Shown one piece after another: positions 13,663 to 15,595 of a stretch of DNA of 64,000 nt. Position 1 is the first letter of the stretch. Every line of letters begins with the position of its first letter. The notes beneath the pieces were generated by a model. The model made no database searches. It was not told the DNA's origin and saw only the letters and a list, made by a program, of their open reading frames with translations. The position numbers and the translations under genes were made by a program. The stretch comes from a virus (lineage: Duplodnaviria > Caudoviricetes): positions 1,094 to 65,093 of IMG/VR virus record IMGVR_UViG_3300025653_000035; one strand, 5' to 3'.

Positions 13663-14298
13663 TTAGACCCACTCCAGTGCTTCTGCCACTGTTGGGAACT
13701 GCTCTGCAAAGATAGTCTTACACTGCTCTGCAATCTCCATATGCTCCTTCTGGGTGCCGTTAGCAGAACGCAGTTGAATGTAGTGAATCCAGGAACGGCA
13801 AGATCCCGACATGTACAAGCGAGTCGGAGTTGCCAGAGGAAGCACAAAGCGAGCACACTCTTTCGCCACGCCCATATCAAGCATTGATTGGTAAAGCACC
13901 ATTGCTTCATCAAAGTGCTTCCTCATTTTGATCTCGAACTCCTGCTTAACGAAAGGATCAATGTCGTCAATAGAATTTTGACGATTCTTGGTGTCCTGAC
14001 GGCGAAGTTCTGGGAGCGGGATCGTCTCCGAGAGTAGGGAAGAATCAGCATAGCGTTGCGAAAACTCTTGATATGTGAAACTACGGTGACGCAAAATCTG
14101 AGCTGCCAGACCACGAGTAGTCTCAATCTCCAGAGTCATAAAACTCTGTTCAAACACAGACCAGTGGTTGTGCTTGATACAATAACCCAATAACTTGGCA
14201 TAGTTGGGGTTTTCCTGATTATTTGGGTTCGACACTCTGGCAACATATGCCATTGTCTGCTCCGCATCAGGAGTTACACTAACCAGTTTTACGCTCAT
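13663..14298 (-). CDS. thyX: Flavin-dependent thymidylate synthase ThyX
   Basis: HWSVFEQ; QILRHRSFTYQEFSQRY; ECARFVLP; GTQKEH. Confidence 0.96.
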   Translation of the reverse strand: MSVKLVSVTPDAEQTMAYVARVSNPNNQENPNYAKLLGYCIKHNHWSVFEQSFMTLEIETTRGLAAQILRHRSFTYQEFSQRYADSSLLSETIPLPELRRQDTKNRQNSIDDIDPFVKQEFEIKMRKHFDEAMVLYQSMLDMGVAKECARFVLPLATPTRLYMSGSCRSWIHYIQLRSANGTQKEHMEIAEQCKTIFAEQFPTVAEALEWV

Positions 14299-14645: not shown

Positions 14646-14683
14646 ATTTTAGCATAAAAAAAGAGGGGTGTGAACCCCGCTCT
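14646..14683 (-). terminator. Intrinsic terminator whose loop is the -35 of an overlapping sigma70 promoter
   Basis: GAGCGGGG-TTCACA-CCCCTC-T7 hairpin; TTCACA-N17-TAAAAT with TGn extension. Confidence 0.7.
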
Positions 14684-14700: not shown

Positions 14701-14865
14701 TCACTTATTATAAGTATGACCACGATAGCAGAAGGTGCCGTGGGTTTCCCCTTCACCTTGCTTGCACTCATACTGAACACCACGATAGGATGTCATATGA
14801 ATTTGTGCGTCGTGAAGTGCAGATGCTTTTTCAATCTGCTTTTTGATCATGTTAAGTGTGTTCAT
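14701..14865 (-). CDS. YRG-motif (DUF4278-like) peptide, 54 aa, absent from track
   Basis: MNTLNMIKKQIEKASALHDAQIHMTSYRGVQYECKQGEGETHGTFCYRGHTYNK; two YRG motifs; SD AGGAGA. Confidence 0.8.
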   Translation of the reverse strand: MNTLNMIKKQIEKASALHDAQIHMTSYRGVQYECKQGEGETHGTFCYRGHTYNK

Positions 14866-14899
14866 GGTTGTCTCCTGAAATACTAAGGTTAATTAAAAC

Positions 14900-15124
14900 C
14901 CGTTCCTTCAGTCGTTTGCGTCCCAATAGCAGTGAGGAACAGATTCCTTTACGGTCTCTACCAATTCTACTACCACTGCTGGCGGTAGATCTCGGTTTTT
15001 ACTGATCTTTATCATTAAAGATTCAGCATCCTGACATGAAATTGTAGAATACAATAGTAGTTCTAACATGGGATGAACGCTCCGTTCCGCGACTTACTTG
15101 CGTCAGAGTTTCCTCTGATGAACG
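14900..15124 (-). ncRNA. Glutamine riboswitch-like (glnA / Downstream-peptide family) element with ORF-containing loop
   Basis: CGTTC-A-TCAGAG-GAAA-CTCTGA-CGCAAGTA-AGTCG ... CGACT-GAAG-GAACG-G; P1, P2, P3 pairings read by hand; begins ~7 nt after a -10 box. Confidence 0.8.
14908..15069 (-). CDS. 53-aa ORF nested inside the riboswitch (ends YWDAND)
   Basis: MLELLLYSTISCQDAESLMIKISKNRDLPPAVVVELVETVKESVPHCYWDAND; GGAG 10 nt upstream of ATG. Confidence 0.65.
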   Translation of the reverse strand: MLELLLYSTISCQDAESLMIKISKNRDLPPAVVVELVETVKESVPHCYWDAND

Positions 15125-15131
15125 TACAGGT

Positions 15132-15160
15132 ATTATATACCTTATGTGGATATTTAGCAA
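15132..15160 (-). promoter_or_regulatory. Sigma70 promoter TTGCTA-N17-TATAAT driving the riboswitch transcript (contains CTAAATA late motif)
   Basis: Hexamers 15160-15155 and 15137-15132. Confidence 0.8.
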
Positions 15161-15235: not shown

Positions 15236-15595
15236 TCACTTTTTCTTTTTGGTTTGAGGTGGTTTTGCTCCCCAGAGTTTGGGATTATGCCTGCCCATAC
15301 CATACTCAATGCTTTTGAGTCCGTCACGAAATTTATCCCAGTACATATCAAAGATATTAACTGCTTTCTGACTACGAGTTAGATCATAACGAAGTTCACC
15401 ATCAACTTCATACTTAACAATCCTAGCATCATTGGGGCATTCTTTTGTGGTCACTTGATCCCAAGTACCATTTTCAATCATAATCTCCACACCATATTTT
15501 TGTTTGGAGTTTTCTTTTTCGGATGCTGACCAGGAATACATAGGATTATTCTCTACTGATGTCTGTGTAGACATCTCTGCGACGTTTTTTGTCAT
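15236..15595 (-). CDS. Conserved cyanophage hypothetical protein
   Basis: YDLTRS...IFDMYWDKF...YG.G..NPKLWG; intact ORF in operon. Confidence 0.7.
   Translation of the reverse strand: MTKNVAEMSTQTSVENNPMYSWSASEKENSKQKYGVEIMIENGTWDQVTTKECPNDARIVKYEVDGELRYDLTRSQKAVNIFDMYWDKFRDGLKSIEYGMGRHNPKLWGAKPPQTKKKK

Follow-up and report, generated by a model that had tools for sequence, protein, structure and literature searches.

Results

Organization of the locus

We analysed a stretch of 64,000 nucleotides (nt) from a virus of the Caudoviricetes (positions 1,094 to 65,093 of IMG/VR record IMGVR_UViG_3300025653_000035; the whole stretch is hereafter called the window), which carries on its minus strand, from position 15126 to 14900, a candidate glutamine riboswitch made of two similar halves. 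The halves lie head to tail with a 3-nt spacer between them, and each runs CGUUCA, a P2 hairpin (P2a in the first half, P2b in the second), CGCA, one strand of a helix P3, and GGAACG-G. The stretch from 15089 to 14915, with which this analysis is concerned, is exactly what the two P3 strands, AGUCG (15094-15090) and CGACU (14914-14910), enclose. It reads C-GGAACG-GAG-CGUUCA-UCCCA, then AUG and the rest of an open reading frame (ORF) of 53 codons, then UGGGA-CGCAAA; P2b, the second P2 hairpin, thus lies itself inside the P3 'loop' of the outer aptamer and holds the ORF in its own loop. An initial annotation had described this inner part as a second, circularly permuted half-aptamer, and when the window's sequence was read every motif that it had listed between 15089 and 14915 on the minus strand was found in place, including the UCCCA/UGGGA helix with the A of the start codon and the second CGCAA. 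The GGAACG-N3-CGUUCA junction between the halves occurs once in the 64-kb window against 0.05 expected (at most one mismatch allowed), and is no chance feature. A small gene with two YRG motifs follows in the same predicted transcription unit (Table 1).

Three classes of relatives

Relatives were collected by three routes: a search with the protein of the P2b loop (the nested protein) as query, which is blind to the RNA motifs and gave 80 loci, 77 of them distinct; two DNA patterns in which P3 and the spacer were left free, with at least 120 loci each; and one scan of cellular genomes. The totals for all classes (about 320 loci) rest partly on pattern listings and are lower bounds, and counts per class are among the matches listed. 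At least about 320 related phage loci keep the double-core layout, falling into three sequence classes with one architecture, and the set used for conservation held 77 distinct class-I cores, at least 60 compact class-II units and at least 120 class-III loci. In class I, the type of the window, P3 is AGUCG/CGACU, P2b always contains the ORF, and P2a is either a short hairpin or, in most relatives, the carrier of a second ORF of about 65 amino acids (aa). Class II has a P3 of GGACGG/CCGCCC with an A.C mismatch and two short P2 hairpins, the double unit measuring only about 100 nt. In class III the P3 helix measures 8 bp and is of the AGCCGACU type, and P2b is short or ORF-bearing. Since compact, ORF-free units exist in classes II and III, the comparison indicates that the ORFs are insertions into a compact double RNA and not the cause of its RNA motifs.

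Conservation and covariation

In the 77 class-I loci retrieved through the protein, the inner GGAACG, CGUUCA and CGCA are invariant and the interior of the ORF varies freely. Across all classes, and also in about 110 loci without an ORF in P2b, there is likewise no variation in the inner CGUUC-A, in G-GAACG-G or in the CGCA that follows P2b, and because the inner core is equally invariant in the latter loci, the inner half is an RNA element rather than a by-product of coding. Conservation of the inner repeats in homologues, on which the initial proposal hung, therefore extends across three classes. All nucleotides of a circularly permuted glutamine core are present in the inner half (15088-15074 and 14920-14917). 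In the Glutamine-II structure, the conserved core nucleotides form the ligand-contacting pair, a base triple made by the G of CGCA, and a conserved helix (PMC6698751). The inner half is best read as a second functional core.

The helices show compensatory change over long distances. In the 77 class-I sequences P3 is paired in 100% of cases across about 180 nt, with double changes at two pairs; for P3 and P2b together (class I, n=77), 99.8% of cells are paired and four pairs show double changes, which none of 500 shuffles matched. Compensatory examples from class-I P2b are CCCCA/UGGGG and UCCUU/AAGGA, and such changes affect 5/6 pairs in P2a and 4/9 in P2b. The class-II P3 has another sequence than that of class I and is still complementary. 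In class III one P3 pair is UA in 9 sequences, AU in 7 and GC in 5, another is GC, GU or AU, and the covariation score of the helix is 0.118 vs 0.056 (0/500 shuffles). As the P3 strands of the two halves pair, the two cores are locked together through one shared helix, to which each half contributes one strand. The pseudo-symmetric double aptamer with a shared P3 that had been suggested is thus supported by P3 covariation in three classes together with conservation of the inner core. Taken together, covariation, core conservation and coding overlap indicate that the inner repeats are not conserved merely for the ORF.

Two symmetric positions of the class-III P3 are often A.C mismatches and are Watson-Crick pairs in other members. 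Conserved A.C or C.A mismatches at symmetric positions were seen in P3 of class-II and class-III relatives (for example L083:10534-10635 and L211); these may be protonated A+.C wobble pairs or a site of tertiary contact.

Genes within the P2 loops

The start codon of the nested ORF (15069..14908, 53 aa) falls within the P2b stem; at the other end, in-frame reading of the P2b 3' strand, the CGCAAA junction and the P3 3' strand yields the last five codons and the stop. Codon-position entropy is 1.18 at third, 0.79 at first and 0.40 at second positions; the ORF is under protein-level selection, a real gene inserted in the P2b loop. In the last five codons, which overlap P2b, CGCAAA and P3, third positions are frozen (entropy 0-0.17 vs 1.3-1.4 just upstream), and in class III the protein tails DAKAD, DAQVD, DANAD and DAEVD follow the P3 sequence, which together indicate that the RNA dictates the C-terminal protein sequence and the stop codon. 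The nested ORF belongs to phrog_504; the annotations of Syn1 and S-BM3 list it as a hypothetical protein (T4-like gene cluster 430) and show no RNA feature there. Its AlphaFold model is a helical hairpin (predicted local distance difference test score, pLDDT, 82.6) with the invariant Cys12 and Cys47 at the ends, and the protein gave no Pfam family, PHROG families of unknown function only, and no significant fold match in the PDB.

A second small ORF lies in P2a in most class-I relatives (L022:365-562, L006:367-561 and about 40 others) and in a few of classes II and III (L024, L081, L106, L121). The P2a ORFs have a leader of at most about 12 nt and a stop codon in the P2a 3' strand, and they form several subfamilies (the phrog_6471 type and others), all with a Cys...Cys core. 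They are homologous to the nested protein (hhalign 94.6%, E 6.7e-8, Cys to Cys), which gives each half-aptamer, together with the gene that it houses, the look of a duplicated module.

The distance from CGUUCA to the AUG that follows it is 3-6 nt in all ORF-bearing relatives, and any folded state would therefore bury the nested initiation region. Thus, the folded RNA likely occludes this region, and the putative repression of the nested ORF by the folded RNA, as first suggested, is plausible. The initial annotation had also seen in the inner loop a GGAG Shine-Dalgarno sequence. GGAG is present in the window and GAG is kept in 75/77 class-I sequences, but its weight as a functional Shine-Dalgarno sequence did not hold up: the class-III loop is GAU in 53/63 ORF-bearing and 46/49 ORF-free units (among the matches listed), and locus L207 combines a class-I P3 and an ORF with a GAU loop. 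Retention of the GAG triloop as a Shine-Dalgarno sequence is thereby ruled out as a general rule; the GAG loop goes with the 'ELLLY' ORF subfamily. The first loop base is G in 319/320 loci listed (the exception is a class-III CAU loop) and the other two bases vary outside class I. The constancy of the first G is more in keeping with a function in the RNA core than with one in binding the ribosome.

Pairing of the P1 strands

All four P1 strands are identical in at least about 320 loci, and the earlier observation that either CGUUC can pair with either GAACG was borne out. In the nested registry the first CGUUC pairs with the last GAACG and the inner pair closes over the 3-nt spacer; in the swapped registry the partner of the first CGUUC is the inner GAACG, and that of the inner CGUUC is the 3' GAACG. 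The Rfam model RF01739 (Glutamine-I) reads compact relatives in the former registry and RF01704 (Glutamine-II) reads the first half of L138 in the latter, each above threshold. Natural variants of the P1 strands that could separate the registries were sought in all loci and none was found, apparent ones being truncated contigs or chance matches. With the motif helices only, the nested and swapped folds have energies of -23.5 vs -16.3 kcal/mol, and with the rest filled in -70.1 vs -67.6 kcal/mol, a gap of 2.5 kcal/mol. Unguided RNAalifold on the relatives predicted the outer P1 and the inner hairpin (P1 over a 3-nt loop), and the minimum free energy (MFE) structure agrees. The nested registry needs no pseudoknot, and it alone brings AGUA, P3, GAAG and GAACG together into the canonical Glutamine-I junction seen by RF01739. 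We give the nested fold about twice the weight of the swapped one, and exchange between the folds is possible.

The transcription unit and its downstream gene

The predicted transcription start lies about 6-8 nt past a sigma-70-type promoter, right at the first CGUUCA, and this promoter and an intrinsic terminator frame a unit of about 470 nt. The downstream ORF has the motifs YRGVQY and YRGHTY, a strong match to phrog_545, and a match to PF14105 (DUF4278) with E 8.5e-4 and 20.1 bits, below the cut-off of 25.3. A small gene of the YRG/DUF4278 type is the usual gene behind glutamine riboswitches (PMC6212724). Its start, AUGAAC (14863-14868), is complementary to GUUCAU in either CGUUCAUC (15074-15079 or 15119-15124), and the unconstrained MFE structure pairs the two. 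Codon 2 of this gene is AAC in 65/66 distinct sequences; the other Asn codons are AAC in 65 cases and AAT in 34 (66% AAC). The AUGAAC/GUUCAU pairing may be part of the expression platform: with the cores unfolded, CGUUCAU would be free to mask the start, which would be in line with the ON behaviour that glutamine riboswitches are reported to show (PMC6212724).

Table 1. Positions of the features of the double element and its transcription unit in the window
Feature	Position	Strand	Basis or remark
Sigma-70-type promoter TTGCTA-17-TATAAT	15132..15160	-	10/12 matches; TATAAT equally spaced in relatives
UA at the 5' end of the element	from 15126	-	precedes first CGUUC
First CGUUC, 5' strand of outer P1, then A15119	15120..15124	-	same in all loci
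P2a hairpin UCAGAG-GAAA-CUCUGA	15103..15118	-	covariation at 5/6 pairs
Junction CGCAAGUA, first-core CGCA and AGUA half of loop-E motif	15095..15102	-	RF01739 alignment; invariant
P3 5' strand AGUCG	15090..15094	-	pairs with 14910-14914 in 100%; GC to AU compensation at two pairs
Linker C	15089	-	before inner GGAACG
Inner GGAACG, able to pair with either CGUUC	15083..15088	-	invariant, all classes
GAG spacer or triloop; GGAG when read with G15083	15080..15082	-	comparison of loci
Inner CGUUCA (CGUUC 15079-15075, A 15074), 5' element of putative second core	15074..15079	-	invariant
P2b 5' strand UCCCA; A15069 opens nested start codon	15069..15073	-	pairs with 14921-14925, compensatory changes
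Nested 53-aa ORF (phrog_504; T4-like gene cluster 430)	14908..15069	-	codon-position entropy, homologues
UAU directly before UGGGA	14926-14928	-	sequence
P2b 3' strand UGGGA (codon Trp49 and start of Asp50)	14921..14925	-	covariation, codon analysis
Second junction CGCAAA, putative second-core CGCA and AA, no loop-E half	14915..14920	-	CGCA invariant in 77 class-I sequences
P3 3' strand CGACU; U14910 opens UGA stop of nested ORF	14910..14914	-	covariation, codon analysis
GAAG, loop-E half of J3/1 in Glutamine-I consensus	14906..14909	-	GAAG or AAAG in relatives
3' GAACG (3' strand of outer P1) and invariant G after it	14900..14905	-	sequence (GAACG at 14905-14901, then GG), alignment
AGGAGA Shine-Dalgarno and downstream 54-aa gene with two YRG motifs (phrog_545)	14701..14876 (Shine-Dalgarno 14876-14871; ORF 14865..14701)	-	
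Intrinsic terminator	14665..14678	-	closes unit of about 470 nt

The unit is flanked by a phrog_485 gene upstream and, on the other side, by small ORFs and then a ThyX-like thymidylate synthase gene (window 13663-14298 and 15236-15595, both on the minus strand), the ThyX-like identity being read from the translation. In Syn1 the riboswitch unit lies between speD and td.

Distribution and unusual relatives

The 601-nt locus of the window was matched by blastn in 415 cyanomyovirus GenBank records, a count of the DNA locus and not of its RNA motifs, and pattern scans found the motif on at least 300 metagenomic contigs and more. Among 401 sampled cyanobacterial genomes the junction pattern occurred only at chance level. 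The scan of 185,579 genomes gave 12 pattern matches, of which 7 are real units, on contigs that look phage-like or mis-binned; the scan pattern required CGCAAGUA, and host doublets with CGGAAGUA were outside the reach of this first scan. Within the 64 kb of the window a covariance model of the compact unit found no further copies of the element; it reported the two halves separately, the ORF insertion not being bridged.

Some single loci deserve mention. L207 (NZ_RMVE01000006.1, 7820-7848) is a full cyanophage-type double unit whose P2b holds an ORF; the 188-kb contig that carries it belongs to an assembly of the flavobacterium Nonlabens xiamenensis, and contamination, mis-assembly of a phage contig or a host outside the cyanobacteria could explain it. 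A separate genome-scan match, L208 (NHGE01000071.1), is otherwise an intact class-I unit and has the inner junction CGAAAA, not CGCAAA, by which it would lose the C of the long-range capping pair of the second core. A PhotoRC-II RNA (L138:4662-4754; RF01717, 78 bits) shares its contig with a class-II double glutamine unit. In L012 and L013 (IMG/VR 3300005611_000882 and 3300005512_001580) only the second half is kept and both small genes are intact: a 190-aa homing-endonuclease-like ORF (phrog_314; L012:17-589) ends right before the second CGUUCA, in the place of the promoter, the first half, the P3 5' strand and the inner GGAACG.

Discussion

Our results suggest that the stretch from 15089 to 14915 is probably the second ligand-binding core of a dual-core glutamine riboswitch, which would form the 5' end of a short early phage transcript ending with an IF17-like (YRG/DUF4278-type) small gene. 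According to this model, both cores would bind glutamine. In the preferred fold the first CGUUC and the last GAACG would complete a full Glutamine-I three-way junction with its loop-E motif, and the inner GAACG and CGUUC, closing through the triloop, would form a second junction, circularly permuted, at the opposite end of P3. With the nested initiation region buried in any folded state, ribosomes on the nested ORF would have to melt P2b and P3, and with them both cores. It follows from such melting that glutamine would act in favour of the IF17-like gene downstream and against the nested gene.

Several observations weigh against this model. The inner junction has CGCA+AA and C+G where the outer one has CGCA+AGUA and GAA+G, and since it has no loop-E motif its geometry must differ from that of the solved Glutamine-I junction. 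There is little steric room in a loop of 3 nt of which the first G may also need a long-range pair. The window's element scores only 21.9 bits with RF01739, as a truncated local match against a gathering score of 35, a low value explained by the inability of the model to span the P3 insertion of about 190 nt. GGAG is not general among ORF-bearing relatives. The P1 strands never vary, and covariation is therefore silent on nested versus swapped pairing. Finally, as L012 and L013 illustrate, the second CGUUC can be left with the 3' GAACG as its sole partner.

This last observation touches on a rather unlikely alternative, in which the swapped (tandem) registry would be the ligand-bound state: two side-by-side cores of Glutamine-II-like pseudoknot topology tied by P3 as an inter-aptamer helix, the inner hairpin being absent or an off state. 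It is the way in which the 2010 alignment (PMC2864571, supplement) treats these sequences, and a local cmscan alignment of the window does the same; RF01704 scores above threshold on the first half of L138 (33.8 vs 33), the inner GAACG is the first-transcribed partner of the first CGUUC, the total linkers of the two halves are equal (4+1 and 2+3 nt), and what remains in L012 and L013 is precisely the second half as this registry defines it. However, it requires a double pseudoknot with P3, and without P3 its motif helices are 7 kcal/mol worse. The loop-E halves AGUA and GAAG and the base of P3 fit the Glutamine-I junction in the nested registry alone, where RF01739 is above threshold, RNAalifold picks the nested P1, and the RF01704 match on L138 is one of primary sequence, its P2 pairs not being real.

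The two other alternatives deny the inner half a ligand. In one, which we consider improbable, the outer Glutamine-I aptamer alone binds, and the inner half is a degenerate brace, or a competitor strand for P1 exchange that serves as expression platform. Ghost aptamers are known from singlet glycine riboswitches, and here the inner junction is 2 nt shorter per strand and without loop-E, and in L208 it reads CGAAAA. Yet a brace or a decoy helix needs no unpaired core nucleotides, and in the inner copy the A after CGUUC, the CGCA after P2b and the G's flanking GAACG are essentially invariant in three classes; moreover, Glutamine-II binds without a loop-E motif (PMC6698751). It is even harder to believe that the inner repeats are conserved solely for the nested gene, as ribosome-binding site and coding sequence with no structural role in RNA. 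This would account for a GGAG 10 nt upstream of the AUG and for 3' motifs inside the ORF, but classes II and III keep the inner motifs around a short, ORF-free P2b, synonymous third positions are frozen over the RNA motifs only (0-0.17 vs 1.3-1.4), C-terminal residue changes track P3 pairing, and compensatory changes are long-range. We therefore retain the dual-core riboswitch as the preferred reading.

With the dual-core riboswitch in mind, one may speculate, as a possible but doubtful extension, that the element is a strand-exchanging double riboswitch, which toggles between a Glutamine-I-like nested and a Glutamine-II-like swapped state and whose cores serve as the expression platform for the genes in the P2 loops. 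According to this speculation, high glutamine would turn the resident genes off and the IF17-like gene on, and translation of the residents would reset the sensor.

Phages are generally regarded as poor in riboswitches. Only two glutamine aptamers were reported from cyanophage genomes in one survey (PMC5473149). By sequence comparison, a putative double glutamine sensor whose halves are joined by a helix is shared by a large group of T4-like cyanophages, and the element appears to be a variant of a known riboswitch class that is widespread in marine cyanophages. Routine Rfam annotation misses this sensor whenever a gene occupies one of its loops. If both cores bind glutamine, the element would represent a natural and compact way to obtain a sharpened or two-output response, and a single molecule would connect the Glutamine-I with the Glutamine-II fold. 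The element is also a clear case of overlapping codes, in which aptamer nucleotides set the C-terminal residues and the stop of a conserved phage protein family, and a small Cys...Cys protein family gains a regulatory context. In addition, our findings point to a possible phage control of host nitrogen assimilation during infection, through the IF17-like protein.

Comparison with known riboswitches and other systems

The closest known system is the Glutamine-I riboswitch (RF01739), with which the phage element shares a P1 of CGUUC/GAACG, the A after it, the P2 hairpin, the CG-N-AAGUA junction, P3, GAAG and GGAACG, as well as its place in the 5' leader of a small YRG/DUF4278-type (IF17-like) gene with a promoter directly upstream. 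At gathering thresholds Rfam gave no match in the window. On compact relatives RF01739 matches end to end, with the second half as a 52-nt P3 insertion and 35.1-40.6 bits against the gathering score of 35. The phage junction is CGCAAGUA where the family consensus is CGGAAGUA (C for G), and after the phage GGAACG comes a G in place of the consensus C; the swapped C and G positions would be the long-range capping pair of both structures (PMC6698751). The phage P3 ends in no hairpin and is closed instead by the second core, and there is room in the P2 loops for ORFs of 50-75 codons.

At the two positions where the phage element departs from the Glutamine-I consensus, that of Glutamine-II agrees with it (C and G), and Glutamine-II (RF01704) further shares with the phage element CGUUCA, a hairpin, CGCA and a GGAACG-G in the loop of a downstream helix. 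The inner GGAACG lies inside the span enclosed by P3, which makes the Glutamine-II pseudoknot topology possible. Glutamine-II is used by the marine picocyanobacterial hosts (PMC6212724). The phage element differs in that it adds the loop-E halves and a second GGAACG past the helix, by which a Glutamine-I junction becomes possible, and in that the P2 helix of RF01704 has no true counterpart in it; the RF01704 match in the window has 12.4 bits and lies at 14944-14893, off the first half.

Glutamine doublets have been catalogued before: Sherlock et al. 2022 (PMC9481103) tally 157 doublets and 4 triplets, which they class as pseudo-cooperative systems that have multiple expression platforms. The tandem doublets so catalogued are very probably the same kind of sequence as the phage element. 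In the Weinberg 2010 alignment (PMC2864571) there are rows with GGAACG-N3-CGUUCA, one of them ORF-bearing; the halves are aligned separately there, with 'AGU...CAC' in the P3 slot and the ORF-bearing second half in the unaligned flank. The catalogued doublets are treated there as two separate aptamers, whereas the 3-nt spacer of the phage element leaves no room for separate, multiple platforms. In the text of PMC2864571 and PMC9481103 accessible to us we found no description of a shared P3, a nested alternative or resident ORFs, and an earlier description is possible.

Like a dual aptamer, the phage element consists of coupled homologous aptamers with no platform between them, as the 3-nt spacer and the covariation of P3 indicate. 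The tandem glycine riboswitch has two homologous aptamers and one expression platform, and its aptamers, each with complete helices, dock by tertiary contacts. The two systems thus have in common two coupled homologous ligand domains followed by a single gene-control region. In the phage element, in contrast, the cores are joined by a shared Watson-Crick helix and the P1 strands are exchangeable.

The genes in the P2 loops recall another phage system. In the group I introns of T4, homing-endonuclease ORFs sit in the loops. In both cases an RNA fold tolerates an ORF in a peripheral hairpin loop, and the initiation region lies within the structure. However, the host RNA of the cyanophage genes is a small riboswitch aptamer, the residents are small Cys...Cys helical proteins and no nucleases, and the 3' end of the phage ORF overlaps conserved aptamer nucleotides.

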